DNA of 64,000 nt from Chlorobiota bacterium. Its GTDB lineage: Bacteria > Bacteroidota > Ignavibacteria > OLB7. Both the position numbers and the translations under genes were made by a program. This document shows, in pieces, positions 40,601 through 64,000 of the stretch; position 1 is the stretch's first letter, and every line of letters starts with the position of its first letter. Below the pieces are notes generated by a model. The model searched no databases, was not told where the DNA came from, and saw nothing but the letters and a program-made list of their open reading frames with translations. The stretch spans positions 2,374,534 to 2,438,533 of the forward strand of contig CP065014.1 of the NCBI GenBank assembly GCA_016700335.1, in the 5' to 3' direction.

Positions 40601-41872
40601 TGTTCCAATTCCACCAATCAATCTTGAATCAGTTGAAACATAACCACAAATATAAGCATTACCATTTTCAACATCAATATCCATTGAACGATCATCACCA
40701 GAACTAGCAATAATTGTCATATATATCATTGCTCCATTCGGATCCATTTTGGTAACAAAAGCGTCATTATAGAATGATGTTATTGAAGGAACACCTGAAC
40801 CAGCTGGATCATTTCCTGTTGGAAATGTTGTACTTGTACCGTTTGTTCCAGCACCTAATTTTTGAGGATTTGGTGCTCCAGAACCAGCAATTAACATTTG
40901 GTTAGAAGAAGTAAAACCAGTAATGTAAGCATATCCAGCTGCATCTACAGATACCCCAGTTGCTACATCATGGCTTGTTGCAACAGGACCAACTGGATTG
41001 CCAATATATGTACAATATACTAATGGATCAATAACAAGCGGACGAGAAGCATCATAGCTTCCGATATTAAATCCTACAGTTCCATTCTGACGAACAGAAA
41101 AAGAGCATTTAACTTCGCGGTTGTTACCGTTCATATCTTTTTGATATGCATAAATACCAGCTTGACGAATTTCACCAAACTGTGTAAGTATGCGAAGATC
41201 ACCATTGTCATCTACTTTTAAACCACTTTGCCCTGTAATTTTCATTGCAATCATATCAGGGCTCGCACCTGGAGCAACAATGAAATCATAACGTGGTTGG
41301 TTGTTTTCCGTATATAATACGGCATCAATTCCTTTATAAAGTTTTTCAACTTTAACAGAATTAAACTTTGAGACAAAACTTGCCCATTTTGTACGATCAT
41401 TACCCATAAGGTAATTATAGTACCCTGGTTGTTTGTCTTCACCTAGAAGTTTTGTAGAGGCAGAAGCACCTACAAAATTAACTTCAACGGCTTGAACTAA
41501 AGAACTAGAATTTTTAGAATCTGAATTCTTAAAATCATTCTTAGTTTCTTTTTTAGCGGCTAAAGTAGAAGCTTCAGAATTACCATTAGTAGTTTGGTAC
41601 ATATTATACACAAAACCAGTATTGGTAACCCAAAGGTTCATACCATTTAAATCCGCCATGAAGCGTGCATTACCTTCCCATTGTCCTTTATTTTCAATAA
41701 AGCCAATGGAATGATTAGCGAACGCCCTCTCGGCAGACTTAGTATTTGTCTTGCCAAGATCCTTTGTGTTCGTGCTTTGTTGCGCATTAGCAACGGCAGC
41801 AACTACTAACATCAATGCTACTAAAGTAGCCCGTAAAAATGTCGGTCGTTTCATTTTCTGGAGTCCTTTCAA
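34607..41872 (-). CDS. Giant (2421 aa) secreted beta-propeller (SBBP)/Ig-repeat protein with a T9SS C-terminal sorting domain
   Basis: The product has a signal peptide (MKRPTFLRATLVALMLVVAAVANAQ). It carries about 7 SBBP-like repeats (DAAGYAYITGFTSS, DDAGYVYVVGNTSSSSFP) and about 8 Ig-like modules (YQWKKNG...AGTYSCEV). The C-terminal CTD reads LKLYDMNGNLVLTQ...SGIYMLTLECDGVIDRQLVIIVK. Confidence 0.8.
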   Translation of the reverse strand: MKGLQKMKRPTFLRATLVALMLVVAAVANAQQSTNTKDLGKTNTKSAERAFANHSIGFIENKGQWEGNARFMADLNGMNLWVTNTGFVYNMYQTTNGNSEASTLAAKKETKNDFKNSDSKNSSSLVQAVEVNFVGASASTKLLGEDKQPGYYNYLMGNDRTKWASFVSKFNSVKVEKLYKGIDAVLYTENNQPRYDFIVAPGASPDMIAMKITGQSGLKVDDNGDLRILTQFGEIRQAGIYAYQKDMNGNNREVKCSFSVRQNGTVGFNIGSYDASRPLVIDPLVYCTYIGNPVGPVATSHDVATGVSVDAAGYAYITGFTSSNQMLIAGSGAPNPQKLGAGTNGTSTTFPTGNDPAGSGVPSITSFYNDAFVTKMDPNGAMIYMTIIASSGDDRSMDIDVENGNAYICGYVSTDSRLIGGIGTNTLPTSLGAIQPSPNRNLNPYNMGSQNLNASYQNFNATPGYCDAFVTGLNSLGTNIIYSTYLGGSYTQDGAFDIDVDGGQIYICGQTIFKWGVNLPPFSGGVLPTLPAVQTAPPALGTATNYFPTFGSAMVAFQPAPRYTAPTLPSQVQGGNINGFYNVTDGFVARLNPAVNGSSQLLYGSYFGGAGDIPTVSGQYVDYVDNVSAIKVGPNQSVFITGTTIAPFLRTTLGTTIADQFPTSWSGSPAGAYAANQEDAFLLQLNTANTGGGQMEYGTMISTPNFTAVDNDEAWDLALAPQGGVYITGVTYSNNAGVIDPSTGLAFYGAGSTQFNPAYNGINYRNSFPISNRAADTRCQGNGEAFVTYVDPSQTNGNQFPYSTYIGGNQNTEWGVAIDVDDAGYVYVVGNTSSSSFPQSRIPVRINLYTAYNMFVCKFSPRLDTLCYSRLMASSNALVANAGFGATTASAIPPGQFPRVRNTIWNLGLNSNGANQMGEFTAQNGGGMDLDDARNVYIVGGRVANTGVGGVYTIPVYTNAPYPVFDAFGDSYGFPSSSNYPPTSTPNFDDAYVLKMQPSEIAVADVGNTNVCIGQAHTVSFATSGCVKSVKIELLNSALSPVWSSDQNLPTGNPRTFVAPGSVGCAGAFTTYAVSDNPLFNDLYITRPPEPGPGLPAGLIPYDITNPLINSNWEWNQDQMRPGIAAVGAGSLNDQGIAVAGTINGVESYYYGFTVPQLPSNILPTGSNGVDYLSGYRWKVTQTDIRPYPQTTVADTSDNTQNIVSPGSPLPTGGTFANFNIIQGNDGRIGYNGANGNPSGFTLVQRPMYADRLPQNTVLVGGVTYPVINTEVCIGTTGNTFSGNYNTTDALGNAISTNIRALGAGGNNALNILNYEWRGPLNALVNSGTMNGVNNFAYTIPTTGFHTLPAALPIPGTGPLGVTTLADGGLYYLDLIRPVGSACAPVLSACTPVPPTRIYVNVKMKQPVSLAVNGGVNAVNSSPCETENGDLSVTLNGDNPGVIWQKLERDGITWTTIGSSNYFLSSSTNRDTVVHSNLLGNHYDLSSNQTVNPLPVPPTTVFKMRINNLRLDDTTKYRANYFSNGPCSTKVNFAQELLLKVLPLPRITRQPLNRTMCAGSNVSFSIGVFGTREWFNNGTYSYQWRRNNQIIPGANDTIYTINSVAASDAGDYSCEVRTPCAFASVVSVDAYLVVNTAPVVTTSPIDAIACAGDNASFSVEAKGGGLNFQWKKNGVAITGANTNMLNLSNVVDTDAGTYSVEVMGQCPPSTTVSAVLTVNKSPIITLDLPATLDACDNTAAQLDVTATGGGLAYEWTKNGTVIVGQTTSSYKFNVTKADNNAKIKVTIKGGCKPDVASKECVITVKDGGAITEGPKDLELCVGNPAKFSVKATGSGITYQWKKNGVNIPGENKADLSITSVSEADAGFYTVEVTGACAITGSGPLTAKLSISKPFTITSQPTGTQNVCPGGSISFSVTVSGGKNLKYQWKKNGTALPGETKSSYSTNISGSGEAGTYSCDVTDDCGQTQTTTTATVIVGSVAAISTQPTSQIICEGGSASFSVTATGANIKYQWLKNGQVISGANSNTYSLSNLTSNESGDYSCNVKGDCGNEIASATAKLVVNKTILTSSASQVDFGAVLVDSVSFKEVSVSFRNGGNTNAIINNFRGPASTTPFTIVSGIPALPKTLLPGEEIVLKVKYVGTPGTSKDSIVISADATCPASARIVLQGTGDERVAYAALEINNSTGDVKQTNPNFVTISYNGVPTKIIESEVSSLSFTIEYNATMLAPQDPALLSQVSYKKDALGLTWAQLPLTVSPVLASGTLKSIPMNVLLGNDSVTPVRFVKESIKWNVPSKGGKVITTGLFDGSFKVKGFCKLGGLRGTDPFKGGVTKISPNPVSSTMLVKYLLDDSKDAKLKLYDMNGNLVLTQFEAAKNGNAVAGLIEKETMLDVSSKYFASGIYMLTLECDGVIDRQLVIIVK

Positions 41873-45976: not shown

Positions 45977-46729
45977 ATGTATTCTATTTTGGTACATATG
46001 AAATTTATTATATTTACAATCATTTTCCTTTCTTCTTTTAACTATTTATTTTCACAAGATGATTTATTTGTTGAAATTGGAGCTGGGTTTAATGGTAGTG
46101 ACAATTCCGTTTTTTCTAACAGATTATCATCATTCCAACCTAGGGATTTAAACAACAAACCAATTCTATATAGGTCTGCAGCATTTTCAAATACTGGTTT
46201 ATCTTTACAAGCAACTTCTACAGTAAGTTTTGGAAATTTAATTTTAAATGCAACTTTATCTAATGTTTACTTCCCTAAAGTATTTTCTATAAATGAATAT
46301 AACTCTAATAGAAGTGAATATAAATTATCAAACTTTGAATTAGGAATTGCATTTGGATATCCTATTGTTCGTAATTCTGGATTTATTTTATTTCCATTTA
46401 TTCAAGGAAGTTTAACAAGATATAATTTATCTTTCAATAACAATAATTTATTACCTATACCATTTTTTGAAGGTGATAATGTGTTACCTGGTGAAATTGC
46501 TAATTATACTGCAAATGGTCCGAGAGCATCTATTGGCTTAGCTTTTGATAAAGTTTTAAGTAATTCAGAAATAGGATTAATTATTGGATCAAGAATAACT
46601 TTTGGTAAAATGTTAAGCTCTGCTCAATGGGAACAGAATAATTCGCTTGTTAAAAATGGAGGTAATTCCCCGTGTAACTGTGGAGCAACAATAACTTTAA
46701 ACTTTGGTTATGGTAAAATTAATAAATAA
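45977..46729 (+). CDS. Hypothetical outer-membrane beta-barrel protein
   Basis: The product has a signal peptide and a beta-strand pattern, and ends in an aromatic residue-containing strand (LNFGYGKINK). No family could be assigned. Confidence 0.4.
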   Translation: MYSILVHMKFIIFTIIFLSSFNYLFSQDDLFVEIGAGFNGSDNSVFSNRLSSFQPRDLNNKPILYRSAAFSNTGLSLQATSTVSFGNLILNATLSNVYFPKVFSINEYNSNRSEYKLSNFELGIAFGYPIVRNSGFILFPFIQGSLTRYNLSFNNNNLLPIPFFEGDNVLPGEIANYTANGPRASIGLAFDKVLSNSEIGLIIGSRITFGKMLSSAQWEQNNSLVKNGGNSPCNCGATITLNFGYGKINK

Positions 46730-48143
46730 ATATTTCGGATTTGGTAACTTTAAAATTGTTTTTAAAAAATTTAATATTTACTACATTTCTTTTTTAATTG
46801 TATTATTTTTTTTAATAAATTTAATTGCATACAATAAATGTTGTTCTCAAAATTTCAATGTAAGTGAGTTTTATTCATATGGAGATGATTACTTTTTTGA
46901 GATAAATACTTTGCCGGGCTCTAAAGTGATTGGCAAAGAAAGAGTTATTGTAACTTTTAGATTAACACATGATTTACTAAATTTTAAAAAAAGTATTTTG
47001 AATGATAAAAGCACTAGATATATTGCTACTCCGAGTATATTTCTCGAAGCTACAAATTATGAAGGTGTAATTTGTGAAAGAGCTTTTTGGAAAGATACTA
47101 TTGTAACTAATTCCTATGAAAATACTAATTCCAAAAATATTTTAGTTTGTGGTTCTTTTGAATTATCATTAAGATCAGATTCTTATAAATTAAAATATGT
47201 AATAGATGATGGTTCTCAAGTGAACTCTATTTCAAAGGTTACTGAGTTTTTTAAAGTTCCTTCTTTTACTAATAGTAGTGGAATTGGTACTCCTAAATTT
47301 TATAATGATGTATCAAATGATACTTTAATTGCGTCTGAAATTGATGCTTCGGTATTGTTTGGAAATAGTTTAAAAGTTTGTATTCCATTTACTTTACAAC
47401 AAGTCCCAATTTCGTCAATTTGTACCATTTCAAAAGTTACAACTAACCCCAATGAAACATCAATTGAAATTAAGTCCTATCCTTGTAAGATATTAGAAAA
47501 CAAAACTTTATCTAAAGCTATAATTTGTAATAATGATATCAAATTTGAAATAGTTGATTTTAAAGATTCATCTAAACAAAGTATATATTTAGCAATTCTT
47601 GAAACACCAATTAATTTTTTAGATGTTGGTGATTATATTTTAAAGGTTAATTGTAAAAGTACTAAGGAAAATTTATCAGATAGTTTTTTATTTAAACTGC
47701 GATGGTTAACTATGCCTTTATCAATTGCAGCAACAAAAAATGATTATAACATTAGGTCTTTATATCCAATAGCAACTCCAGATGAGATAAAAGAACTAAG
47801 AAGTGGAAGTACAGAAGAAAAAGTAAAAAAATTTAATGAGTTTTGGAGGATATTAGATCCTACTAAGGATACAAAATTTAATGAAGCAATGGCTGAATAT
47901 TACACAAGAGTTGATTATTCTTTTTTTAATTTTAGATCATTAGATCAAAACGATGGTACTTTTACAGATAGAGGTAAAATATATATATTAAACGGACCAC
48001 CAACAGAACTTCAAAGAGATTTACGAGGTGAAACACCAAAGGAAGTTTGGATTTATAAAAACAGAGTTTCTAAAGAATTTATATTCACTGACAAAACAAC
48101 AAAGGGTAACTTTAAGTTGATAGGAGTTGTTGATTTAAAATAA
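46704..48143 (+). CDS. GWxTD domain-containing protein
   Basis: The C-terminus reads DGTFTDRGKIYILNGPPTE...EVWIY, matching the GWxTD signature. The annotated start overlaps the upstream gene by 26 nt, so the true start may be an internal TTG or GTG. Confidence 0.6.
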   Translation: MVMVKLINKYFGFGNFKIVFKKFNIYYISFLIVLFFLINLIAYNKCCSQNFNVSEFYSYGDDYFFEINTLPGSKVIGKERVIVTFRLTHDLLNFKKSILNDKSTRYIATPSIFLEATNYEGVICERAFWKDTIVTNSYENTNSKNILVCGSFELSLRSDSYKLKYVIDDGSQVNSISKVTEFFKVPSFTNSSGIGTPKFYNDVSNDTLIASEIDASVLFGNSLKVCIPFTLQQVPISSICTISKVTTNPNETSIEIKSYPCKILENKTLSKAIICNNDIKFEIVDFKDSSKQSIYLAILETPINFLDVGDYILKVNCKSTKENLSDSFLFKLRWLTMPLSIAATKNDYNIRSLYPIATPDEIKELRSGSTEEKVKKFNEFWRILDPTKDTKFNEAMAEYYTRVDYSFFNFRSLDQNDGTFTDRGKIYILNGPPTELQRDLRGETPKEVWIYKNRVSKEFIFTDKTTKGNFKLIGVVDLK

Positions 48144-51795: not shown

Positions 51796-54444
51796 TTATG
51801 TATTTGAAATTTGCAACTTATCAGTGACATCTAATCCAAGTCTATGAGAAAAAAATCTAAAATTTTCAATTGGTAATGTCTCATCTGGAATCAATTTTAT
51901 TCTTACAAAATTTTTCATCATTAACTTAGTTAATCGGCTAATGTTTCCCTCTGTTATATAGTCCATCATTGAAGGATTTACTGATAAAGATAACCTAAAG
52001 TCTTTAGTATTTTGCTTAAAATCATGAAGCCATTGTTCTATTCTTTTCATTATTAATGGTTTTGAATGAACAAATCCTCTACCATCACAAGTCCTGCATG
52101 TTTCAGACATTGAGTTAACAACTTGATTACGAATTCTTTGCCTAGTTATTTGTAAAATGCAAAATTGTGACATTGGTAAAACAACAGTTTTAGCTTTATC
52201 TGTCAATAATAATCTTCTCATTTCATCATAAATTTTTCTCTTATTTCTATCATCTTGCATATCAATAAAATCAATAGCAACTAATCCACCAACATCTCGC
52301 AATTTTAACTGTCTTGCAATTTCACGTGCAGATTCAATATTTGTATGCAACGCATTTATCTCTTGTTCATTGCTCCCTTTATATCTTCCCGAATTAACAT
52401 CAACAACCATCATTGCTTCTGTTTGTTCTAAAATAATATAACCTCCACTCTTTAAATATATTTTTCTATGAAACATTTTAGCTAATTCTTTCTCTATTCC
52501 AAATGACTCATAAATTGGATTCTTCTCCTTATAATGTTCAATATTTTTTAACATATCTGGCGCAGCCCAAGATACATATTCCCTTATTTCTTCAAACACT
52601 TTTTTATCATCAATAATTACCTTATTAATATTTTCTGTAAATAAATCACGCATAATACTTGATACTAGTGATGATTCAGAATAAATAAGAGATGGATTAT
52701 TAGCAACTTTAATTTTCTCATCAATAACTTTCCATCTTGCTATTAAATGAGATAACTCCTCACGAATTATATCTTCATCTTTTTCTTTAGCAACTGTTCT
52801 TATTATACAACCATATCCCGTTGGCAACATTTCTTTTGCTATTCTTCTTAATCTTTTTCTTTCAATGTATGATTCTATTTTTTTTGAAACTCCAACCATT
52901 GGTTCTAGTGGTAAAAGCACAAGAAATCTTCCAGGTAAAGATATTTTTGTTGATACTCTCATTCCTTTCTGAGCATATCTTTCACGGGTTACTTGTACTA
53001 ATATTTCCTGTCCCTTTACTAAATCAATAATTACTGAGCCAGACCTTTTTGTTTGAAATGTAGGGAGTTTATTATCAATTGTTTTACTCTTAATTGATTT
53101 GACTTTTTTCTTTAATTCATTTTTTTTATCACTTTTTATTTCGTCAATTTCTTTAACTAAAGTATTTGAGTTATTTTTTAAAATTGGGTTATTATTCTCA
53201 AGTTTAATTATATTATCATTTCTTTTCTTTGATACAGAGTTATTAATTGATCTATTTTTATCAGAGATTTTTGTAGAGTCCTTTATTTTTTTATTTGGTT
53301 CAATTTTATTTTTTTCATGGACAACATTGCTTATACTTAAAACAGTTTCTATAGATTTACTTTTATTGTCATTAACTGAGATACTCTGTTTTGTTTTTAT
53401 ATTATCTTGTTTTCCTTCAGTAACTTTTGTTTGTTTTTTAGAAGTTAAAACACTTTTAATATTAGAACTTATGTCATTATTCTGTTTTTTAGATATAAGT
53501 TTTTTTTCTTTACTTATTACATCATTTTTATTTCCATCATTAAAACTATTTGAAGGTTGAATCTCACTATTTTTTTGGGATAAATTATTACTCTTTTGTT
53601 GTTTTACAATTAGATTTGAATTAACTTTAACTTGAGTAACCTTATTTGAAGCAATTAATTCCCTTGAATTTTGCTTCTGATTTAATGAATTATTATTTAA
53701 ACCTTTTTTTAAAACTAATTTTTTATTCCCTTTATGTAACCCCTTAGAAACAAGATCCAAATCTGTTGATTTGGGATTTACTTGTTTAATATAATCAATT
53801 TTATTAAGTTTATTTTTATGTAGTTTTACTTGGCTCTCTTTTGTAAAATTAACTTCGTTCTTGATTTTTAAGTCATTTACTTTAGTCAATAAATCTAATT
53901 TACTAATTATGTTCCCTTGAGTATGACTTACTTTAGGACGGGTTAAAATAATAGCTCTTTTTTCTTCGGTTAAAGATTCTTTAAGCTCAACTTTAGGATT
54001 AGATGAACTCTTCACTTTACTTTTTTTCTTGTTCTTATTGGAATTTGATTTATTATTATTTTTTAATTTCTTTGAATTAGGATCAATTGAGATTTCCTCT
54101 TTATGAGGATTTTCTTTTTTATTATTTGGGTTAATATTACTTTTATTACCAATCTTTGGAGTTGGCAATTCATCATCATCATCATCACCTGTATCAAGCT
54201 CTGAAGCATTAGCGGCATCAGAAAAATGCAAGAAAGCATCTTGAGAATCCCCAATATCAACAAAAGCAGCATTCATTCCTTGAGCAACTCTCTTTACTTT
54301 TCCCAAATAAATTGCACCTACTGGATTTTCTGTTTCTGGTGTTTCGATAAAAATCTCAACTAATCGATTTTCTTCCAGTAAAGCAACTCTAATTTCTTTT
54401 CCTGTAGCATTTATTACTATCTCTTTTTTCATCTTTTCAATCAT
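51796..54444 (-). CDS. Ribonuclease E/G family endoribonuclease with a large low-complexity insertion
   Basis: The N-terminus carries the first half of the S1 domain (GAIYLGKVKRVAQGMNAAFVDIG...DAFLHFSDA). The second half (IIDLVKGQEILVQVTRE...ISLPGRFLVLLP) and an RNase E/G catalytic core (DVGGLVAIDFIDM) follow about 400 residues later. Confidence 0.8.
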   Translation of the reverse strand: MIEKMKKEIVINATGKEIRVALLEENRLVEIFIETPETENPVGAIYLGKVKRVAQGMNAAFVDIGDSQDAFLHFSDAANASELDTGDDDDDELPTPKIGNKSNINPNNKKENPHKEEISIDPNSKKLKNNNKSNSNKNKKKSKVKSSSNPKVELKESLTEEKRAIILTRPKVSHTQGNIISKLDLLTKVNDLKIKNEVNFTKESQVKLHKNKLNKIDYIKQVNPKSTDLDLVSKGLHKGNKKLVLKKGLNNNSLNQKQNSRELIASNKVTQVKVNSNLIVKQQKSNNLSQKNSEIQPSNSFNDGNKNDVISKEKKLISKKQNNDISSNIKSVLTSKKQTKVTEGKQDNIKTKQSISVNDNKSKSIETVLSISNVVHEKNKIEPNKKIKDSTKISDKNRSINNSVSKKRNDNIIKLENNNPILKNNSNTLVKEIDEIKSDKKNELKKKVKSIKSKTIDNKLPTFQTKRSGSVIIDLVKGQEILVQVTRERYAQKGMRVSTKISLPGRFLVLLPLEPMVGVSKKIESYIERKRLRRIAKEMLPTGYGCIIRTVAKEKDEDIIREELSHLIARWKVIDEKIKVANNPSLIYSESSLVSSIMRDLFTENINKVIIDDKKVFEEIREYVSWAAPDMLKNIEHYKEKNPIYESFGIEKELAKMFHRKIYLKSGGYIILEQTEAMMVVDVNSGRYKGSNEQEINALHTNIESAREIARQLKLRDVGGLVAIDFIDMQDDRNKRKIYDEMRRLLLTDKAKTVVLPMSQFCILQITRQRIRNQVVNSMSETCRTCDGRGFVHSKPLIMKRIEQWLHDFKQNTKDFRLSLSVNPSMMDYITEGNISRLTKLMMKNFVRIKLIPDETLPIENFRFFSHRLGLDVTDKLQISNT

Positions 54445-54515
54445 CGTATTTCAAATATTTAATCTACTTTATTTTGATAAACTAATTTATTTCTAACTTA
54501 AAGGATATAAAAAAA

Positions 54516-54614
54516 GGACCAAGCTTTACCGATTCACACGCCACCTATGCTGACTGCTGCTTCCTTCCGGATCTGACAGGATTGGGCTCGATGACGTTGC
54601 TCGGGACTTGGTCC
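54516..54614 (-). ncRNA. ffs: Signal recognition particle RNA (small/4.5S type)
   Basis: The minus-strand sequence contains CCUGUCAGAUCCGGAAGGAAGCAGCAG, matching the conserved SRP domain IV motif (GUCAGGUCCGGAAGGAAGCAGC). The terminal helix pairs ggaccaag with cttggtcc. The region is a local GC-rich island of about 100 nt. Confidence 0.75.
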
Positions 54615-54736
54615 AACTTCCATAATATGTAAGATATTATCTGTATCTAAAAACTTAATACTAATATTCTAAAAAGTTTGGCAAAAATAACAGAATTATT
54701 TCTAGTACTGAAATTTTTTTAAATTCTTATTCAATA

Positions 54737-54895
54737 TTATCTTTTCTCAATTATAAATCCAATTAAAAAAATTACTATTCCTGTACCTAAATACATAAAC
54801 TCATACTTCATATCATTCTCAATAATTCCGTATAATAAACCAACTCCTGTAATCCCCATACCTATGAACTGTATTAACTTTGGCACCTTTTGCAT
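54737..54895 (-). CDS. Possible small (52 aa) two-TM membrane protein
   Basis: The minus-strand ORF reads MQKVPKLIQFIGMGITGVGLLYGIIENDMKYEFMYLGTGIVIFLIGFIIEKR. It is below the 60-aa cutoff of the ORF track and has no homology support. Confidence 0.2.
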   Translation of the reverse strand: MQKVPKLIQFIGMGITGVGLLYGIIENDMKYEFMYLGTGIVIFLIGFIIEKR

Positions 54896-55025
54896 TTATA
54901 ACAAATTTAAATATGTTTGTTTCAAGTTTATACTACATGACTTAAACATTTAATCTAAATATAAAACAGATGTAAAATAGTTATGTTGAAAATTAGAAAT
55001 TAAAAAACTATCTACAATTTTAGTT

Positions 55026-55063
55026 AAAAAAAAACCTCCCGGAAATTCACCAAAACCGGGAGG
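55026..55063 (-). terminator. Rho-independent terminator (minus strand)
   Basis: The stem cctcccgg/ccgggagg has a 13-nt loop. On the minus strand it is followed by a T9 run. It lies about 210 nt downstream of the stop of the giant gene at 55271. Confidence 0.55.
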
Positions 55064-55270
55064 GCCTCACTAAGGTACTATGAATCTGCAAATGTCCTCA
55101 TACTTACAGACAGTGGCAAATATAGAAAAAATTACTCAACCTACAAGTTTTAAATAACAAATGAGTTTTTACAATACTATTTTAAGGTTCTATTTTAATA
55201 GATTAAAGTTTATTTGTATGATATTATTACCTCTTAATTTTAAATTAACTATTAAGTTAAATAACTAAAT

Positions 55271-58200
55271 TTATTTTTGAATAATCATGCTTTTAACGCA
55301 TGAATAAGTTCCACTAGATAATTTGTAGAAATAGACTCCACTTGGGTATTCAGTTGCATCAAATGTATATTTATACTTACCTGGTTCTAGATATTTGTTT
55401 AATAAAACTCCTATTTTTTGTGAATACGAATTGTATAATGTTATAGTTGTTTGTCCATTTAAACCTACACTAAAATTAAAATTAGTTGATGGGTTAAATG
55501 GATTTGGACTGTTTTGTGAAAGTGAATAATTTTCATTTGTAATTTCTATTAATCTGTTCTTGATTCCGCAAATAGAATCGATCTCACCAAATCCTGAAGT
55601 TCCTTTTATACTTACACATTGAAGCTTATCAGATAACTCCATGTTAATACTATATTTAAAATTAGTAATGTCACTTGCAAAGCAAATAAATTTTGGGTTG
55701 AATATATTTCCAAAATCATTTAAGTATTCATTAGTTGGAGCAATTAATTTTAGAGTTAATTTTCCTGGAATATTTTCTAAAATATCAACATTCCAATCAT
55801 TAAAAATAGTACCTTTAAAAAAATTATTTATAGTTCCATTAAACTCTAAATCTAAATTTTCTTTAGTATATTCTAGCTCAAATTTCACCTCTTTAGATTT
55901 AATTATTTTTAGAGATTTATCTAATTTCACCATTAAAGAAAATGAATCTAATTGACTCATTTTTAAACCAGTTTGTGTTCTAAGTTCTCCTGAAAGTGTA
56001 AATGCTGAGCCAGATATTTCTAACTCATTTTCTGGAAAATTCTTTAAAGAATCACTCAAATATTTTACAATTATTTTAGCACTGTAGTTACCTACTTGCA
56101 TTGGATTAAAATTCACTTTTATAAATAAACTATCACCCTTAATTACTTTTTTTGGTAATGAAATTGGGTCTAAGTTGAATACTGAATTAGTATCTATAAT
56201 CTCAATATCTTTAATAAAAATATCAACATCACCTGAATTATATACACTTAAATATCCAAAACCACTACTGCATAAATCAATAGGCTGTAAATTAAAGCCT
56301 AAGGAATAAGCTGATTTTGAATACGAAAAACCTTTTAAAACATTAACTGAATCATCACAATAAGGATGATTTGAAGTGACTCTTACATTAGCAGTTCTTA
56401 ATCCTGGCCTTTTTGGTTTAAAGACTATATTATATTTTTTAGATTCATTTGGCATTAATATTAAAGGGTTAATAGTTGATGGAAAACTATCCTTTGATTC
56501 AAAACTGAATTCTAAGAAATTATCATTATAAATTTCTAAATCCGTTACTTCTAATTGTTTAGATCTAGATGCTGAAATATAAATACTCCCTTTTCTAATA
56601 GTAATACCTTCACCAACGAATTCTAATGTATCAAAATTAAAACCTGTTATAGATACTCCAGACTCAATTCCCACACCCTTTAAAGTGCCTATTGCTACTT
56701 CATTAGCTTCAGTGGTTAGTACTATTTTACAAGAGTATTGTCTTTCATTCCCTGGTTTGAATAGAACTTGTTGATACCTTTTATTATCCTCAGTTGTATC
56801 ATCACCAACAAAGGCCATCCCTATGTTTACTTGAGGATTATATCCAAGAGAGAAATATCCACTATCTGCATCTGCTCCAATTAGTTCTAATGATTTTACT
56901 ATAAATGGTGCACTTCCAAAATTAGCAACTCTAATAGAATCAAATACATAAACACCATTTACATTTTTAGTACACTTTGAGAATGTATTACTAACCCATT
57001 TTTCACCCCAATCATAACTTGTTATTTTAGGACTAGGTTTTCTAACTTTAGCTATCCAAATTGAACTGTCCCTTTGGCATTTTGCATTTGTAGAAAAATA
57101 CCCTGTGGTTTCGAAAAAACCAACTGTATCGGCTATAAATTTAACATTTATATAAATGCATTCATCTTTTTTGAGTATAGTATTATATAACAATTTCTGA
57201 TCATCTACTGTAATTGAAAATTTCTTTAATAACCATTTAACAATATCTGTTCCTGATTTATCCTTAGAATTAAACGTTAAAGTTCCACCTAATGTATTGC
57301 ATATTTTTAATGGTAAAGTTTCTTCCTCTCCAACAATCAAAGTACCAAAATCTAAATCTCCTACATAAACACATGGGATTCCTAAAATTGCAGTTAATGG
57401 TATCTTTGCCTCTGAGCAACCATATTTTACTCTTAATGTATCTATTGCTCTTTTAGTATTATTTGGAAAATTATTAAATAAAGTGATTGTTATTGTATCC
57501 CATTTTTTAAGTTGTACTGGAAGTTTTGGATCAATTTTTTCAATTACATAACCAGCATTTTTAAAAATTAAATCTACTGATTGTACATTTAAACTATTTG
57601 GTTTTGTGTTTACAATTTTAATCGTTAAACTTTTTGATTGGGAATTAACAGTCACCTCTCCAAAATCTAGACTCTTTGGATTAATTTGTGGGGCATCACT
57701 AACCCAACTATAATTTATTGTTTTAGATCTTCCTGTGCGATCCCTAATCACTACAATTGCACTTGCATCAAAAATCGGATTAATTGGAGAAACACTGAAT
57801 GTTGCATCATTTGCATTAATAACTCCATTATTTGTTTGTGGCTTACTAAAAGAAATTTTAGAATTATTCGAATTAATTAATTTAATCAAACGAATACCAG
57901 ATGGATTTTGATTAACACATTTAACAGTTACATTCATTGAGGTGCAATTGTAACTTGAAGTAATTACTAAAGAATCTGGAACTTTGTTTATTGCTCTAAC
58001 TGGAGCGAGAGGATAAGCATAACTTCTTGAATTAATTTCTTTATACTCTGCAGGATGTTGAGGTGTTGATTTTCCATCAAATGTTTGTATTTTATCTTTC
58101 CCATCATCTAGTAAATTTGAGCCTGGTGTAAAAGCTTCAATTCCATTCCCAACACCATAAACATAAGCATAAAATTTACCATCATTTTCTGAAAATAACA

Positions 58201-59683
58201 TAGCATTAGTATTTGGCTCAAATTTTACTGAAGTCCAGCAATAAGAAGTGTTTGGAACATTACTCTCACATATTATATTAAATTTCCCTCCATTTAAAAA
58301 TTTTCTATACTTGATGTTATACCTATTTACAGTATCTGTAACAACAACCAAAAAATGTTGCATTAAATCATTACCTGTAAAAAATGGAGCTTTATTAATC
58401 CAATTTTCTTTTGGCACCAATTCAACCATAAATGTTGAAACTGTATTGTATTCTGAAATATTGCCAACTTGATCTTTTCGAGATGTAAATGAAAATGCGC
58501 TTGTATTCATAAATACTTGAGATGGCTTATTTGTTACCATAAAATTAGCTCCATCTGATTTGCCAAAGACCAAATTATGAAAAGATTTTATAGTGTCAAC
58601 TTCTGTAACTTCACCATTATTTAATGAATCAAATCCAAATATATTACCTAATATAGTATATCCGTTATAGGTTCCATAAGCTCTAACAAAGTCATATTTA
58701 TGAGAATAATCCATTGCAGGTAAATAAACAAAATTTGTACCATGATAATCTACTGGAGGCATATCTTCAATTAACAAATTTTTAAGAGTATTTTTTGCAA
58801 AACCAGCAAGATTTCTAGGAATTTCACCTCCTGAACTTCTTGTATTCCCCGATAAAACTCCAATCGGTTTGTTAGAAACAATTTCTAGTCCAGACAAATC
58901 TATTTCAAAATCATTACCATTATTTTTTTTAACAGATTGGGAATCTACTCTACTATTAATCAATAATGATTGACCAACATTCATATTAATATTTGATGTA
59001 TTCATATTTGGATTAAAGAAAATACTTTTTCCTAAATTTGAATACCTAAATGGGTTATTAATTTTTACTTTAGTATTGTTTTCTAATGCTGTAATAATTA
59101 CTTGAGAAGGTGCTAATACAGAATTCCGAAAATAGTTAAACTCACCATCACCACCAACATGGTATGTTAAATCACCTTTTAATGCAGCCGCAAAATAATC
59201 TTTTCCCCAAGCATCAGCTGGAATTGGCGTCCAAGCTTCGGATCCAGAAGAAGTGTTCATATAACAATAAACAATTATAGGGTATTCAGCTTCAATTTTA
59301 AATGAAGAGTTTGAACTAACAACACCAGAAGTTAGTGGGAAAATATTTGAAATGTAAAGACCTCTCTTTTGAACTATTCTATGTGTGTAAATATTATCAG
59401 CATCTAATTTCAGAAAAGTTACTCCTCCTTTAGGGTCAGTTACAGTAGCTTGTTGATATTCTGAAGAATAAATAACAAAAGATATCTCATTAAACCTATT
59501 ATCAATAAATCTATAATCTGGTGCATTAAATACTATTTGAGGAAGGGTTATATAGTATAAATTCCCTGCAGCTTTATCATTAAAACTTTCAGTTTGAGAA
59601 TATATATATCGTTCTTTTATAATGAATAGAACAATAAAAATTAAAAAGCATTTATTTATCCGAAACCTAATTTTTGAGAACAT
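55271..59683 (-). CDS. Giant secreted protein (1470 aa): T9SS cargo, paralog 2
   Basis: The product has a signal peptide (MFSKIRFRINKCFLIFIVLFIIKERYIYSQT) and the conserved module (EAWTPIPADAWGKDYF, SNKPIGVLSGNTRSS, YAYPLAPVRAI). It carries DFG-repeats (DLDFGTLIVGEE) and a C-terminal CTD (SPNPFNPSTNFNFSV...SGVYFYKLSSGTYSCVKSMIIQK). Confidence 0.8.
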   Translation of the reverse strand: MFSKIRFRINKCFLIFIVLFIIKERYIYSQTESFNDKAAGNLYYITLPQIVFNAPDYRFIDNRFNEISFVIYSSEYQQATVTDPKGGVTFLKLDADNIYTHRIVQKRGLYISNIFPLTSGVVSSNSSFKIEAEYPIIVYCYMNTSSGSEAWTPIPADAWGKDYFAAALKGDLTYHVGGDGEFNYFRNSVLAPSQVIITALENNTKVKINNPFRYSNLGKSIFFNPNMNTSNINMNVGQSLLINSRVDSQSVKKNNGNDFEIDLSGLEIVSNKPIGVLSGNTRSSGGEIPRNLAGFAKNTLKNLLIEDMPPVDYHGTNFVYLPAMDYSHKYDFVRAYGTYNGYTILGNIFGFDSLNNGEVTEVDTIKSFHNLVFGKSDGANFMVTNKPSQVFMNTSAFSFTSRKDQVGNISEYNTVSTFMVELVPKENWINKAPFFTGNDLMQHFLVVVTDTVNRYNIKYRKFLNGGKFNIICESNVPNTSYCWTSVKFEPNTNAMLFSENDGKFYAYVYGVGNGIEAFTPGSNLLDDGKDKIQTFDGKSTPQHPAEYKEINSRSYAYPLAPVRAINKVPDSLVITSSYNCTSMNVTVKCVNQNPSGIRLIKLINSNNSKISFSKPQTNNGVINANDATFSVSPINPIFDASAIVVIRDRTGRSKTINYSWVSDAPQINPKSLDFGEVTVNSQSKSLTIKIVNTKPNSLNVQSVDLIFKNAGYVIEKIDPKLPVQLKKWDTITITLFNNFPNNTKRAIDTLRVKYGCSEAKIPLTAILGIPCVYVGDLDFGTLIVGEEETLPLKICNTLGGTLTFNSKDKSGTDIVKWLLKKFSITVDDQKLLYNTILKKDECIYINVKFIADTVGFFETTGYFSTNAKCQRDSSIWIAKVRKPSPKITSYDWGEKWVSNTFSKCTKNVNGVYVFDSIRVANFGSAPFIVKSLELIGADADSGYFSLGYNPQVNIGMAFVGDDTTEDNKRYQQVLFKPGNERQYSCKIVLTTEANEVAIGTLKGVGIESGVSITGFNFDTLEFVGEGITIRKGSIYISASRSKQLEVTDLEIYNDNFLEFSFESKDSFPSTINPLILMPNESKKYNIVFKPKRPGLRTANVRVTSNHPYCDDSVNVLKGFSYSKSAYSLGFNLQPIDLCSSGFGYLSVYNSGDVDIFIKDIEIIDTNSVFNLDPISLPKKVIKGDSLFIKVNFNPMQVGNYSAKIIVKYLSDSLKNFPENELEISGSAFTLSGELRTQTGLKMSQLDSFSLMVKLDKSLKIIKSKEVKFELEYTKENLDLEFNGTINNFFKGTIFNDWNVDILENIPGKLTLKLIAPTNEYLNDFGNIFNPKFICFASDITNFKYSINMELSDKLQCVSIKGTSGFGEIDSICGIKNRLIEITNENYSLSQNSPNPFNPSTNFNFSVGLNGQTTITLYNSYSQKIGVLLNKYLEPGKYKYTFDATEYPSGVYFYKLSSGTYSCVKSMIIQK

Positions 59684-59770
59684 TAAGTTAATTTAAAAAT
59701 ATATTATTTACACTTAAAACTAAAATGTGAAATTATGAAAAATTATAAAATAAAAATTATTTTATACAAA

Positions 59771-59807
59771 AGAAGGACGATCTTTATGAAAATAGACCGT
59801 CCTTCTT
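59771..59807 (-). terminator. Rho-independent terminator separating the tandem giant genes
   Basis: The stem agaaggacg/cgtccttct is followed on the minus strand by a T-rich tract. It lies 28 nt downstream of the stop at 59835. Confidence 0.5.
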
Positions 59808-59834
59808 GCATTTTAACTCTCAACTTAAAGTAAA

Positions 59835-62800
59835 CTATTTTTGTAAAGTCATTGAATTAGTTTTAGTCCAATGCCCACTAGTTAATCTATAATAATACAA
59901 ACCAGATGATGAGGCAGAAGCATCCCAAGTTACTCTATACTTACCTGGAGTCATAAGCTGATTAACTAAAGTTGCAACTTTTTGTCCTCCTTCATTATAA
60001 ACAACCAAAGAAGTAGGTGCATCTAAGGCAACTTCAAAATCAATATCTGTAGAAGGATTAAATGGGTTTGGAGAGTTTTGCTTTAAAGCATAGTTTCCAG
60101 AAATCAATTCAATCAATCTCAAATTTAATCCACAAATAGAATCAAGTCTAGCAAACCCAGGATCAGTAGTAACATCTGTACAATTCAATTTATCTTGAAT
60201 CAACATATACCAAGGTAATTCAGATTCTGATACATCTCCAACATAAGTTGCAAACCTTAAGTTTAACATAGTACCAAAACCTTTTAAGAAATCTCCCTTA
60301 ATATTTTTTAATCCAACAGTAAATATACCTGGTTCATTATCTATAACAGTTGCATCCCAACCATCTAAAATAGTCCCTTTTATCATATCAGATTCTACAT
60401 CTGATTTTGAATTATTTACTAATTGCATCATTCCTTTACTATATCTGAATGAAATAACTACATCTTTTGATTTTGCCTCATCTAATGGTGAATCTAAAAT
60501 TACTGGTATAATCAATTCCTGACCAGGTGCACAATGATGATCACGATTAATATGTCCATGTGCAATAAGAATATGAGATTTTCCAGTTAAGTCAGCAGTT
60601 TGATCTGGTAAAACTTTACCAATTTCATCTGTCATTGAATACACTACAGTAGCTTTATAATCTCCAACAACTTTAGGTAAAAATCTAACTGGTATAGTAA
60701 CAGTTTGACCAGGAGTCAATTTAAAAGGAACTGTTGGATAAGTTAGAATGAAAATACCACCATCTCCAATTAAATCTATATTTGTTACAATAATGTCAGC
60801 TGATCCTACATTTGTTAGAGTAGTTGTTCCATTTTGTTCATCACAACTTAACAAATCTCCAAATACAAATCCAGTTGGTTTAGCGCCTAAAGTATATGAA
60901 TAACCAATTAATTTATTTGTTGAATCATCACATCTTGCATGATCACCTAAAACCTCAATTATAGCATTTTTAACGCCAGGTTTATTTGGTTTGAACAACA
61001 TTGGTATAATTCTTTCTTCACCAGGAGTCATAATCCATGGAGAAGATTGGCTTGGAAGTGAGAAACCACCACTTAAATCAAAATCATAATCAGCTTTGTC
61101 TGCTCCAATAATTTGCAAACCAGTTACTGTTAAATCACGAGTTGGTTTTGCTGTAAGTTTAACTGCTCCTTTTACTGCTGTTAATCCAGCACCTAAGAAT
61201 TCAGTTGTATCAAAATCATGACCTGTAATGGATACATGCGATTCAATTCCTACTCCTTTTAAAATTCCCTCTGCTGTTCCACCTTCGGTTGTTGTTAACT
61301 TAACAATACATGTATAGTCTCTTTCATCCTTTGGTTTGAAAAATACTTGTTGATATCTTCTAGCATCAGGATCTTTACCTGACATAACATCTCCTGGAGA
61401 TATAATTGGATTATTTCCTAAGGTAAAAAATCCATCATCAGCATCTTTTCCAACTAATTCAATTTTTTCTACTGTGAAATCGGCTGTTCCAGTATTTGAA
61501 ATTGCTATTGAATCGAATGGATATTGTTGTTCTGTATTTTTAGTACAATTATTTAAAGGTACAACTACCCATCGTTTACCCCAATCATATCCTGTTATTT
61601 GAGGACCAGGAACAGTAACTTTAGCAATCCAAACAGAAGTATCTCTATTACAATTAGCATTTGTATAGAATTTTCCAAGTGTAGTAAATAATCCAAGTGA
61701 ATCTGTAGAAGTAAAAGTTACATTTATCATAACAAATTCATTTGCTTTCAATTTAGAAGCTTTTAGCTTAGCCATATCAAATGGAGTTACTGTAAAGAAT
61801 CTTGATAACCAATCTAAAACTTCAGCAGCTTGACCGCTTGGATGTTCAAAGGTTAACAAACCCTTACCATTATTCTCAATTTTTAAAGGTAGTTGTTTTG
61901 AAGTATTCTGTTTCAAAGTACCGAAATCTAAATCTCCCACATATATACAAGGTACTTCACCAGTTGCATGTAAAGGAACATTCATTTGACCACATTCAGT
62001 TTTAACTACCAATACATCTTGATAAATTCCTAACTCTTTTGTAGGATTAATTCTAACTTTAATAGTTATACTTTGTCCTTCTTTAATTTGGACTGGTAAT
62101 GGACTTGGATTAAATGAAACAATCTCAAAATCATTTGTTCCTTTTTCAAGTTTAATTTGAGTAATTGTAATTGTTTTCTTAAGTGTATTTGTAGCAACAA
62201 CATCTTTAATATCTGATGGTGCTCCAACACTTACTGACCCAAAATCAATTTTATCAGGAGTTATTTCTAATCTTTCAGCTTCATAAAAATAAGGTATTGT
62301 CCAAGATTGCCCTGTTTTGCTTATAACTTCAACTGTTGCTTCTGCATTTTTACTTGGGTCGATTGGAACAACCTGAAAAGTAATAGTAGATGCACCTATA
62401 ATTCCTGTTACTTTTGAAGGTGTTATCCATAATAACTTAGCATTTTTTGGGTCAACAAGTCTAACTGTTCTAAATCCAGCAGGCTTAGGAGATTTCATCC
62501 CAATTAAGTTTGCTTGTACCTCAAAGATGTTGCAATCTTTCTTTATCTTTAATTCTAATGAATCTATTTGACCTAATGTAATACGATTCGGTGCTAATGG
62601 ATAACCATAAGAGTGCGAATTTGTTGTATAATAATCTGATGGATGTAACACTTTATCTTTACCTCCACCTTGAGTTTCATTACCATTTTTATCATCATCT
62701 TTTTTCTTTGTTGTACCTGGTTGATATTGTTCTGAACCATTTCCAGTACCAGAAACATCACCAAAGAACTTACCTTTACCACTCTTTGATTGCACTATAA

Positions 62801-64000
62801 ATTTCATTGCAGAATTTAATCCTACATTTGTCCAAACGTAAGGACTACCTGGAATTTTTCTATTGAAATTTATTTTTGTTACACTTCCTCCTTCATTTAC
62901 AAGTTCAATATCATCTTTATTTAATGAATCTGTACAAATGTTTAAGTTATTGTCATAAGTTCCTGTAACAGGAGTAAAACCTGGTGCAAAAGTTACCCAC
63001 TGTTCTACTGGAACCATTTCAACCATAAAAGGTGCCCAAGTATTATATGTTCCTGAACCATCTGTTGAATTTGCTACAACGAAAGAAACTGAAGTTGAAA
63101 TTTTTGTAGCTTGAGTTGGTTTATCTGCCTTCATATAATATGCAGCTCGAGGATCAAACTCAATTCCTTCTCCATTAATACCAGTAATAGTTTCAACCAA
63201 AGTCCCTTGACCCAATTTTACATTTCTTTTTCTCATTGGCAAACCAATTGGTCCTGGATTAGTTAACTCTATATTAGTAACATCGTCTCCAGATGTATCA
63301 TTTTTACTTGTTCCATAAAAGCGACCATACTCCCTTAATCTTACACCCCCTTTACCTTTAGCGGGAGGGATGTCAGTTGGTCTTCTTGAATCCCAAGTTG
63401 GCATATATACAAATTCTTTCCCATGAGTTTCAATTGGTGCAACAGCTTCCATTAACATATTAAGCATTGTTGTTTTTCCACAGCCATACATTGATCCTGA
63501 TGCAATTCCACCCATTGTTCTTGTATTACCTGAAATCATTCCAACGGGTTTATCAGTAGTAACTCTAATCCCACCTGCATCTGGTTGGTTAACTCCTAAA
63601 TTCCTTTGTAGGGTATCAACATCAGATTCAATCAAGCTAGCAAAATTCTCTTCTAAAGTAAAACTTATTTTAGTGTCAGGTGGGAAATATCTATGAATAA
63701 CTACATTACTTGAATAAGTAGGATCTGTTAAAGATACATGTGTATCTGAATCTAATGCAGCAACTACAAACTGACCAACTGCTAATTTTGGAGCGGTTGA
63801 ATATGTAAATTCTCCTGCGGTATATAAATTGTTAATTGGTTGTCCAGGAACACCTACAGAATAATAATCTGTACCCCAACTTTCAGCCGGTAGAGGAGTC
63901 CATGCTTCTGTTCCAAATCTAGTATCGAACATAACATAAACAACAATTGGTTGTTCAGATCTTAGAACAAACAATTTATTTGCTTGAGGGAGATTTGGGA
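59835..64000 (-). CDS. Giant secreted protein (at least 1379 aa): T9SS cargo, paralog 3. The 5' end is truncated by the window edge.
   Basis: The frame is open to position 64000. The reported M is a TTG at 63972-63974. Alignment with paralogs 1 and 2 (EAWTPLPAESWGTDYY, TDKPVGMISGNTRTM, YGYPLAPNRI, DLDFGTLKQNTSK) shows that about 130 N-terminal residues are missing. The C-terminal CTD reads SPNPFNPSTDIDFEV...SGLYYYRLTSGHWTKTNSMTLQK. Confidence 0.8.
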   Translation of the reverse strand, partial: PNLPQANKLFVLRSEQPIVVYVMFDTRFGTEAWTPLPAESWGTDYYSVGVPGQPINNLYTAGEFTYSTAPKLAVGQFVVAALDSDTHVSLTDPTYSSNVVIHRYFPPDTKISFTLEENFASLIESDVDTLQRNLGVNQPDAGGIRVTTDKPVGMISGNTRTMGGIASGSMYGCGKTTMLNMLMEAVAPIETHGKEFVYMPTWDSRRPTDIPPAKGKGGVRLREYGRFYGTSKNDTSGDDVTNIELTNPGPIGLPMRKRNVKLGQGTLVETITGINGEGIEFDPRAAYYMKADKPTQATKISTSVSFVVANSTDGSGTYNTWAPFMVEMVPVEQWVTFAPGFTPVTGTYDNNLNICTDSLNKDDIELVNEGGSVTKINFNRKIPGSPYVWTNVGLNSAMKFIVQSKSGKGKFFGDVSGTGNGSEQYQPGTTKKKDDDKNGNETQGGGKDKVLHPSDYYTTNSHSYGYPLAPNRITLGQIDSLELKIKKDCNIFEVQANLIGMKSPKPAGFRTVRLVDPKNAKLLWITPSKVTGIIGASTITFQVVPIDPSKNAEATVEVISKTGQSWTIPYFYEAERLEITPDKIDFGSVSVGAPSDIKDVVATNTLKKTITITQIKLEKGTNDFEIVSFNPSPLPVQIKEGQSITIKVRINPTKELGIYQDVLVVKTECGQMNVPLHATGEVPCIYVGDLDFGTLKQNTSKQLPLKIENNGKGLLTFEHPSGQAAEVLDWLSRFFTVTPFDMAKLKASKLKANEFVMINVTFTSTDSLGLFTTLGKFYTNANCNRDTSVWIAKVTVPGPQITGYDWGKRWVVVPLNNCTKNTEQQYPFDSIAISNTGTADFTVEKIELVGKDADDGFFTLGNNPIISPGDVMSGKDPDARRYQQVFFKPKDERDYTCIVKLTTTEGGTAEGILKGVGIESHVSITGHDFDTTEFLGAGLTAVKGAVKLTAKPTRDLTVTGLQIIGADKADYDFDLSGGFSLPSQSSPWIMTPGEERIIPMLFKPNKPGVKNAIIEVLGDHARCDDSTNKLIGYSYTLGAKPTGFVFGDLLSCDEQNGTTTLTNVGSADIIVTNIDLIGDGGIFILTYPTVPFKLTPGQTVTIPVRFLPKVVGDYKATVVYSMTDEIGKVLPDQTADLTGKSHILIAHGHINRDHHCAPGQELIIPVILDSPLDEAKSKDVVISFRYSKGMMQLVNNSKSDVESDMIKGTILDGWDATVIDNEPGIFTVGLKNIKGDFLKGFGTMLNLRFATYVGDVSESELPWYMLIQDKLNCTDVTTDPGFARLDSICGLNLRLIELISGNYALKQNSPNPFNPSTDIDFEVALDAPTSLVVYNEGGQKVATLVNQLMTPGKYRVTWDASASSSGLYYYRLTSGHWTKTNSMTLQK

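Follow-up and report, generated by a model that had tools for sequence, protein, structure and literature searches.

The three giant genes A, B and C are real, well conserved and ordinary members of a large, tandemly expanding and catalogued protein family, and their products are, on balance, best regarded as T9SS-anchored adhesin-like or capture proteins of the cell surface, not as enzymes. All three share the same order of elements, namely a signal peptide (seen in A and B), a head built around PF17517, a set of five Ig domains of the ASH/PapD-like type, a cohesin fold, a linker and a type A CTD, and they are old paralogues that have diverged in function.

Three colinear paralogues

The window, that is, the whole stretch of 64,000 nucleotides analysed, comes from an uncultured, Kapaibacterium-like 'Chlorobiota' MAG with an AT-rich genome of about 28% GC, and it also encodes a TSP3-repeat OmpA protein (32657..34510). 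In the case of gene C, the reading frame is open up to base 64000, so the TTG start at 63974 is an artefact of the ORF listing, and residue 1 of the visible protein pairs in alignments with residue 121-122 of its orthologues (Table 1). Pairwise BLASTP gave 35% identity over 1393 aa for B and C (822 bits), 31% for B and A (568 bits) and 33% for C and A (676 bits), with E=0 in every case. These alignments of about 1400 residues are colinear from end to end, and the 31-35% identity measured agrees with the 30-40% that the first-pass annotation had expected of three giant colinear paralogues. The similarity of each pair reaches well outside the CTD, and the four N-terminal motifs previously quoted are found in all three translations.

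Table 1. Positions of the features discussed, numbered from the first base of the window
Feature	Positions	Strand	Description
Gene A	11918..16423	(-)	Complete ORF, 1501 aa; third long-form paralogue
Candidate small RNA	55018..55110	(-)	~90 nt; contains the hairpin 55026..55063 earlier credited to B
Gene B	55271..59683	(-)	Complete ORF, 1470 aa, pI 8.3; fast-evolving long-form paralogue
B type A T9SS CTD	55274..55507	(-)	Residues about 1393-1470
B cohesin-fold module	55577..55996	(-)	Residues about 1230-1369
B stalk	56000..57694	(-)	Residues 664-1228; five ASH/PapD-like (choice-of-anchor D) Ig domains
'DNKRYQ...YSC...LTT' block of B			Within the third stalk Ig domain, residues about 885-1005
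B head module	57695..59596	(-)	Residues 30-663; secondary-structure boundaries, approximate
B signal peptide	59597..59683	(-)	Residues 1-29; predicted cleavage before Gln30
Intrinsic-terminator-like hairpin after C	59771..59807	(-)	13-bp stem, dG -22.6 kcal/mol, z -6.7, then UUUUG
Gene C	59835..>64000	(-)	1387 aa visible, pI 5.4; ~121 N-terminal residues past the window edge

Architecture of the proteins

The signal peptides of A and B are visible directly in the translations, that of B with a basic n-region and a hydrophobic core. Of 160 family members, 92% share the Gln30 and 79% the Ala29 of B. As a predicted cleavage site, the conserved Ala29-Gln30 of B agrees with the 'Q-rule' of signal peptidase I cleavage in Bacteroidetes, which Bochtler et al. 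reportedly formulated in 2018.

The head of B begins with a beta-sandwich (about 40-151), continues with the core that Pfam assigns to PF17517 (154-510) and closes with an Ig-like domain (about 572-660), and its AlphaFold2 model is all-beta, with a pLDDT of 84 and a pTM of 0.87. In the Pfam scan, PF17517 (IgGFc_binding) scored 57.8, 108.2 and 94.6 bits in A, B and C, against a gathering threshold of 25.6 bits, and nearly the whole model is covered in each of them (positions 6-297 of 297 in B), whereas residues 1-128 and 530-663 of B have no Pfam match of their own. Neither sequence nor fold searches returned a solved homologue of the head (~630 aa), and no PDB chain was matched in sequence by either B or the head profile. 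All three proteins have the conserved module of about 600 aa that had been proposed at their N-terminus, but its family, earlier called apparently uncharacterised, is already catalogued. The reservation attached to that proposal, a head matching a characterised Pfam family, applies in part: PF17517 is matched, and the absence of a functional characterisation in bacteria stands. Literature searches on PF17517 or IgGFc-binding proteins in bacteria and on T9SS secretomes yielded no bacterial study, nor any PF17517 protein of a bacterium whose function had been tested, and so the bacterial family stands as catalogued yet functionally uncharacterised and without a solved structure.

Alignments of 11 and of 160 sequences contain neither an invariant His (the best candidate, H443, is 72% conserved and missing from A and C) nor an obvious catalytic constellation, in agreement with the earlier failure to recognise any catalytic motif. 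On the other hand, the family alignment shows conserved acidic and polar residues in the head (D202, D247, D262, S278, N280, R282, E306, D325, E426, E516 and E549), which could form a catalytic or metal site instead of a binding surface.

The stalk matches the choice-of-anchor D model NF012200 above its cut-off of 45 bits in all three proteins (A, 52.8; B, 62.5 in three stretches; C, 89.2 in two), which bears out the DFG-type, choice-of-anchor-D/ASH-like Ig repeats previously described. The 'conserved block' (in C, DARRYQQVFFKP) is not a distinct element, since in the model it forms the last strands of Ig-like domain three. The stalk of B is followed by a nine-stranded jelly-roll with the cohesin fold, a module absent from the architecture given earlier. 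No Pfam cohesin family was matched in the whole-protein scans, nor at E<=1 when the fragment was scanned.

A short linker separates this module from the CTD, which adopts the Ig-like beta-sandwich of seven strands known from solved CTDs and matches the fold of the mirolase CTD. TIGR04183 (cut-off 23) scored 29.7 in A, 23.5 in C and 22.4 in B in whole-protein scans, so that B falls just under the cut-off; PF18962 (cut-off 27) reached 30.0 when the last 310 aa of B were scanned alone. The previous assignment of a type A T9SS CTD thus holds for A and C through TIGR04183, and for B through PF18962. Four further CTD-bearing ORFs occur within the window, which makes the use of a T9SS likely, and, among the ORFs of the window that were scanned, no match to a family of T9SS machinery emerged.

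Family history and transcription

An exhaustive search with a single profile recovered 9119 cluster representatives at E<=1e-3, 5602 at 1e-10 and 1431 at 1e-30, and word-indexed homologue searches returned only 16 (query B) and 8 proteins (query head alignment). In the genome scan, the family was found almost only in MAGs of Kapaibacterium, Chlorobiota and Bacteroidota, with many loci carrying 3-5 tandem copies, and its members fall into two length classes, one of about 950 aa and one of about 1450-1517 aa, the short forms being devoid of the cohesin-fold module. Relatives already bear the NCBI names 'IgGFc-binding protein' or 'T9SS type A sorting domain-containing protein'. Proteins of one locus (L021) have only the stalk, cohesin and CTD in common with C, and those of two others (L018 and L023) only the head: heads and stalks recombine across the family. 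A short-form relative (P0029), which may belong to the same genome as A, B and C, is 73% identical to C over the head and two Ig domains and then passes directly to the CTD. No description of this passenger architecture was found in the literature searched.

Gene B is 99.9% identical to a protein (P0001) on Logan contig L027. Full-length orthologues of A (P0058) and C (P0032) show 62% and 61% identity, respectively. The latter adjoins the positional orthologue of B (P0002, only 38% identical) on contig L028, where the order C, B, a 52-aa ORF, RNase E/G and IMPDH is kept. Identities to that contig reach 86% for IMPDH and 76% for RNase E/G (429 aa aligned), so that, judging from these values, the pace of evolution is moderate in A and C and much higher in B, at a conserved chromosomal position. 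Such a fast rate would be expected of a surface protein with a changing ligand or selective pressure. The old duplication claimed by the first-pass annotation finds support in the orthologues of A and C present elsewhere and in the synteny of the C-B pair in another organism.

In the case of transcription, B and C had each been credited with a terminator hairpin. Both hairpins are real, but only that of C can be kept as proposed: it is a good, strong terminator that starts 28 nt past the stop of C, and the orthologue of C on L028 has, at the equivalent place, a hairpin of another sequence followed by a T-run. Together, these two structures make a separate transcription of C and B plausible. 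The hairpin assigned to B (55063..55026; 8-bp GC stem, T9 run, z -1.95) lies 208 nt past its stop, inside the candidate small RNA. It sits within a 55-nt block identical at 54 of 55 positions to L028 and L029, whereas the flanks and protein B have diverged, and both loci have a Bacteroidota-type -7 box, TAnnTTTG, some 35 nt upstream. For these reasons, the hairpin probably terminates the candidate small RNA. Both small-RNA loci fold into a 5' hairpin, its stem differing in sequence between them, a single-stranded conserved part and a terminator. No Rfam family was matched, nor was the core of this RNA found in a JGI metagenome scan. The two hairpins credited to B and C were assessed by direct folding, because their loops of 10 and 13 nt exceed the limit of 8 of the consensus terminator scan, which gave none; downstream of A, nothing resembling a terminator folds within the first 85 nt.

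Proposed function and relation to known systems

The biology of T9SS cargos is established in Porphyromonas and Tannerella. By analogy, A, B and C would be exported by the Sec pathway, their CTDs would be recognised by the T9SS translocon, and a PorU-type sortase would remove the CTD and link the proteins covalently to anionic LPS, leaving the Ig stalk to hold the head out from the outer membrane. The head would then be a ligand-binding module, as its place in this architecture and the roles of animal PF17517 domains in IgG-Fc binding and in mucus and glue matrices suggest (PMC11237159, PMC3325411). IgG as the native ligand is implausible for an environmental bacterium.

The first-pass annotation had left adhesins and S-layer-like proteins side by side; adhesin-like proteins are the reading favoured here, and a two-component S-layer-like lattice of B and C, comparable to tfsA/tfsB and co-assembled by the charges of acidic C and basic B, is unlikely. 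Similarity to any solved S-layer protein was absent from the PDB sequence searches, the matches to SbsC reflect generic Ig domains, and the basic pI of B may merely be due to the Lys/Asn-rich composition of a 28% GC gene. Acid-base pairing as a rule of the family was rejected by the pI computed for all tandem arrays, most of which, elsewhere, are all acidic and consist of 3-5 copies, not of pairs. Moreover, tfsA and tfsB are co-transcribed, whereas a strong terminator stands between C and B. Quite unlikely, too, is the stricter version in which syntenic C and B would be obligate partners of a T9SS-anchored lattice, with the PF17517 heads outside and the cohesin folds making lateral or anchoring contacts; if true, it would give thousands of bacterial PF17517 proteins their first function and assembly principle, and would model what domain H of animal FCGBP evolved from. 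Another role for the cohesin fold, as a membrane-proximal dock through which A, B and C would assemble dockerin-like or calcium-binding-repeat partners into a multiprotein complex, is improbable in the face of the missing Pfam match, the lack of an identified dockerin and the frequent use of non-cellulosomal cohesin folds as mere spacers. Indeed, the existence of short forms without the module indicates that it is dispensable for the core role of the family.

An enzymatic head displayed at the surface, such as a peptide L/D isomerase or a carboxylate-using hydrolase, would be in keeping with the numerous conserved Asp, Glu, Ser, Asn and Arg residues of the head and with the fact that T9SS cargos are often enzymes, and the peptidyl-aminoacyl L/D isomerase of Bombina is homologous to FCGBP domain H, that is, to PF17517 (PMC3325411, PMC11237159). 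This proposal has little likelihood. Least credible, and already largely refuted, is a repertoire for antigenic or phase variation, in line with the 'possibly surface variation' of the first-pass annotation. Several diverged paralogues of one surface protein, the fast evolution of B (38% against 61% for C at equal evolutionary distance) and the tandem arrays common in related genomes would accord with it. However, DNA identity between B and C attains at most 71-77% over <=137 nt at homologous positions, too low for recent gene conversion, and the absence of both gene-conversion tracts and invertible repeats across 54400..64000 leaves surface variation unsupported. Neither inverted repeats flanking promoters nor a recombinase were found nearby, every copy is intact with its own signal peptide, each paralogue has its own orthologue, one pair being syntenic, and the clear orthologues of A and C argue for stable, separately maintained functions.

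The finding is otherwise as expected in a genome of the FCB group, where large Ig-rich T9SS surface proteins occur in paralogous families. The interest of the locus lies in its head: bacterial PF17517 proteins are numerous, and their animal homologues (FCGBP, peptide L/D isomerase, frog glue) are poorly understood. Since it offers complete diverged paralogues, confident models, a domain map and a syntenic pair with very unequal rates, the locus can be used to find what a bacterial head binds or does.

With respect to known systems, the cohesin-fold module of B shares only 10-21% identity with the cohesins of cellulosomal scaffoldins (4uyp_A, 4dh2_C, 2vn5_A), below Pfam detection, and, unlike them, it sits in a Gram-negative T9SS protein. 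The five stalk domains score and superpose with choice-of-anchor D/ASH/PapD-like proteins (NF012200; HYDIN, CEP192, the VesB Ig domain), which are generic spacers or interaction domains and thus uninformative on a specific function. As in the A-LPS-anchored type A cargos of P. gingivalis and T. forsythia, there is a Gln at the predicted mature N-terminus and a CTD of ~75 aa; the lineage is here Kapaibacterium/Chlorobiota-like, not Bacteroidia, and export and anchoring are predicted only. Tannerella forsythia TfsA/TfsB are likewise an adjacent gene pair of large Ig-rich T9SS type A cargos, from which the present pair differs by the strong terminator between its genes; TfsA and TfsB are not known to have a PF17517 head or cohesin module. 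The comparison of B and the head profile with the solved chains of the PDB gave no detectable relation. Unlike the isomerase of Bombina, the bacterial head lacks the conserved His proposed for that enzyme, a hypothesis derived from DEPC sensitivity, and the catalytic residues of the frog isomerase are not firmly established (PMC11277431). Finally, the PF17517 core is, in animals as in these bacteria, an extracellular, beta-rich and N-terminal part of large secreted multidomain proteins. In the bacterial heads it is flanked by a family-specific sandwich on the N-terminal side and by an Ig-like domain on the C-terminal side. Where the animal proteins carry VWD/TIL domains or disordered repeats, the bacterial ones continue into ASH Ig domains and a cohesin fold and end in a T9SS CTD.

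Architecture of the three paralogues

The genes A, B and C encode colinear paralogues, whose BLASTP alignments run from the head to the tail over ~1400-1550 columns with identities of 35% (B/C), 31% (B/A) and 33% (C/A), all at E=0, which bears out the 30-40% proposed in the first-pass annotation. The sequence motifs quoted there occur in all three translations, except that C reads DARR in place of the DNKR of A and B, and the choice-of-anchor D repeats and T9SS tail are matched by curated models. Alignment with orthologues indicates that ~121 N-terminal residues of C are missing. In the tests applied, A, B and C come out as members of three groups: T9SS type A cargo, PF17517 and choice-of-anchor D. 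Each protein carries a head of ~630 aa around a PF17517 (IgGFc_binding) core, a stalk of five ASH/PapD-like Ig domains and a type A C-terminal domain (CTD). PF17517 scores 57.8 bits in A, 108.2 in B and 94.6 in C (threshold 25.6) and spans residues 154-510 of B, where the flanking residues 1-128 and 530-663 gave no match in the Pfam scan but are nonetheless conserved within the family. Of 160 family members, 92% have Gln at position 30 and 79% have Ala just before it, a pattern that agrees with the Bacteroidetes Q-rule for signal-peptidase I sites. The block around DNKR, previously regarded as a feature of its own, falls, in the model, inside the third Ig domain. As for the cohesin-like region, a profile of 18 family members gave cohesins as its six best PDB matches, with weak E-values (0.027-0.27), and the relation is one of fold only.

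The pI is 8.3 for B, a basic protein, and 5.4 for C, an acidic one, and the orthologous pair is alike (8.3 and 5.5). The Bacteroidota O-glycosylation sequon D[ST][AILMTV] exceeds the shuffle expectation 2.5-3.3-fold in A (15 vs 5.6), B (14 vs 4.2) and their orthologues P0058 and P0002, whereas no such excess is seen in C (8 vs 5.7) or its orthologue P0032. The GC content is ~28% in B vs ~33% in C; the low value of B parallels its Asn/Lys/Ile-rich composition and faster divergence.

Features of the window discussed in the text
Feature	Position	Strand	Description
Small T9SS protein	7688..8632	-	314 aa; clear CTD (37.1 bits), no other Pfam domain
Gene A	11918..16423	-	ORF, 1501 aa
AAA_16/AAA_22 ATPase	16596..19895	-	STAND-like, 1099 aa; 172 nt upstream of gene A, same strand
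OmpA-family outer-membrane protein	32657..34510	-	N-terminal beta-barrel and five bacterial TSP3 calcium-binding repeats; adjoins the 2421-aa cargo
T9SS cargo of different type	34607..41872	-	2421 aa; DUF7948, SBBP beta-propeller repeat, many Ig_3/I-set domains
GWxTD-domain protein	46704..48143	+	48.3 bits
Small SRP RNA, bacterial	54514..54613	-	RF00169, 54.2 bits (gathering score 40); just upstream of RNase E/G
Hydrophobic (membrane) ORF	54737..54895	-	52 aa, MQKVPKLIQFIGMGITGVGLLYGIIENDMKYEFMYLGTGIVIFLIGFIIEKR; same length and position in L028 and L029
Candidate small RNA	55018..55110	-	~90 nt, between B and the 52-aa ORF; conserved core, -7 box, fold
Gene B	55271..59683	-	ORF, 1470 aa
Gene C	59835 to window edge	-	Frame open to base 64000

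Genomic context and host

The window is AT-rich chromosomal DNA (GC ~24-37%), with housekeeping genes spread through it (RNase E/G, IMPDH, TypA/BipA, ClpX, RelA/SpoT, RsmB and ScpA). Its TypA is 100% identical to a protein that NCBI annotates as coming from a 'Chlorobiota bacterium' MAG and to a partial sequence labelled 'Candidatus Kapaibacterium sp.', which makes the host a Kapaibacterium-like, uncultured organism within the Bacteroidota/Chlorobiota group. The 314-aa T9SS protein is the fifth CTD-bearing ORF within 64 kb. In the 2421-aa cargo, the Por_Secre_tail match is weak (22.9 bits, where the threshold is 27), and the GC content of this gene, ~33-37%, is visibly higher than the 24-31% typical of the window. 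Nothing was found that ties the function of the ATPase upstream of A to this gene. Homologues of the GWxTD protein also lie near family genes at two other loci (L022 and L025), possibly by coincidence.

Age of the C-B pair and its intergenic regions

Each long paralogue is nearer to a protein of another organism than to its siblings in the genome: A shares 62% identity with P0058 and C 61% with P0032, both at full length. The Logan contig L028 keeps the gene order of the window (C-type, B-type, 52-aa membrane ORF, RNase E/G and IMPDH), with identities of 86% for IMPDH, 76% for RNase E/G (429 aa aligned), 61% for C and 38% for the positional orthologue of B. Most residues of the 52-aa ORF are shared, by eye, with its counterparts in L028 and L029. 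The synteny and these identities show that the tandem pair is older than the split of these lineages, in line with the old duplication first proposed, and that over its entire length B has a much higher rate of evolution than C.

B and C had also each been credited with a terminator of their own, which holds well for C. The hairpin after this gene (59807..59771; 13-bp stem, -22.6 kcal/mol, z -6.7, U-run) is convincing as an intrinsic terminator, and at the corresponding position of the orthologous locus lies a hairpin of other sequence with a T-run. It is thus plausible that C and B are transcribed separately, with read-through possible. The hairpin assigned to B (55063..55026), on the other hand, lies 208 nt past the stop codon, inside a 55-nt block that is identical at 54 of 55 positions to L028 and L029 while the flanking DNA and B have strongly diverged. 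Both loci show, ~35 nt upstream of the block, a TAnnTTTG box, the Bacteroidota -7 promoter motif, and both fold into a 5′ hairpin, a single-stranded stretch that is conserved (UUCAUAGUACCUUAGUGA) and a GC-rich terminator hairpin with a U-run. The stem of the 5′ hairpin differs in sequence between loci with its structure kept, and the loop contains GAGGA. This region looks like a small RNA with its own promoter. It matches no Rfam family, and searches for its core gave one occurrence in the window and none in JGI metagenomes. The transcript of B may or may not end at the same hairpin.

Family diversity and putative function

Used as a profile in an exhaustive search, the head alignment matched 9119 cluster representatives at E<=1e-3, 5602 at E<=1e-10 and 1431 at E<=1e-30. 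Nearly all of the best 150 matches extend over the greater part or the whole of the 644-position profile, and they fall into two length classes, a short one of ~950 aa (head, two Ig domains and CTD) and the long one of ~1450-1517 aa to which A, B and C belong. A motif-based scan of species-representative genomes yielded 26 loci, almost without exception from MAGs of Kapaibacterium, Chlorobiota or Bacteroidota; many of these loci hold 3-5 family genes in tandem. Heads and stalks have been shuffled within the family, as proteins of locus L021 resemble C only in stalk, cohesin and CTD, and those of L018 and L023 have only the head in common. P0029 (QQS66961.1, 1009 aa, 'T9SS type A sorting domain-containing protein [Chlorobiota bacterium]') shares 73% identity with C across the head and two Ig domains and then passes directly to the CTD; it is probably a fourth, short-form paralogue of the same genome, outside the window. 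The family can be called uncharacterised only in part: it is catalogued, with PF17517 above threshold and relatives named 'IgGFc-binding protein' or 'T9SS type A sorting domain-containing protein' in NCBI, but literature searches found no paper on any bacterial PF17517 protein. The finding is real and tidy, and unsurprising for the phylum.

Among the possible roles, a repertoire for surface variation, as first suggested, is very improbable, because no gene-conversion tracts were found between the copies (DNA identity <=77% over <=137 nt), nor inverted repeats hinting at an invertible promoter; this speaks for functions that are stable and have diverged, a single member changing fast. The opposite charges of B and C could reflect a two-component surface lattice, an unlikely arrangement given that such basic/acidic pairing is absent from other tandem arrays. 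An enzymatic head, which a frog L/D isomerase homologue would favour, is harder still to credit, since no His is conserved and no enzyme family is matched. A cohesin-based scaffold is just as improbable, and to name the OmpA/TSP3 protein as a conceivable partner of the cohesin-fold modules is pure speculation.

The role that we consider somewhat favoured is that of surface-anchored, adhesin-like binding proteins. Following established T9SS biology, A, B and C would be exported by Sec and translocated by the T9SS in a CTD-dependent manner, after which the CTD would be cut off and the proteins anchored to A-LPS, leaving an Ig-domain stalk that presents the head. Finally, the head would bind a ligand, as suggested by the architecture and by the animal PF17517 proteins, which include the Fc-binding FCGBP and a galectin-crosslinked frog glue protein (PMC11237159, PMC3325411).
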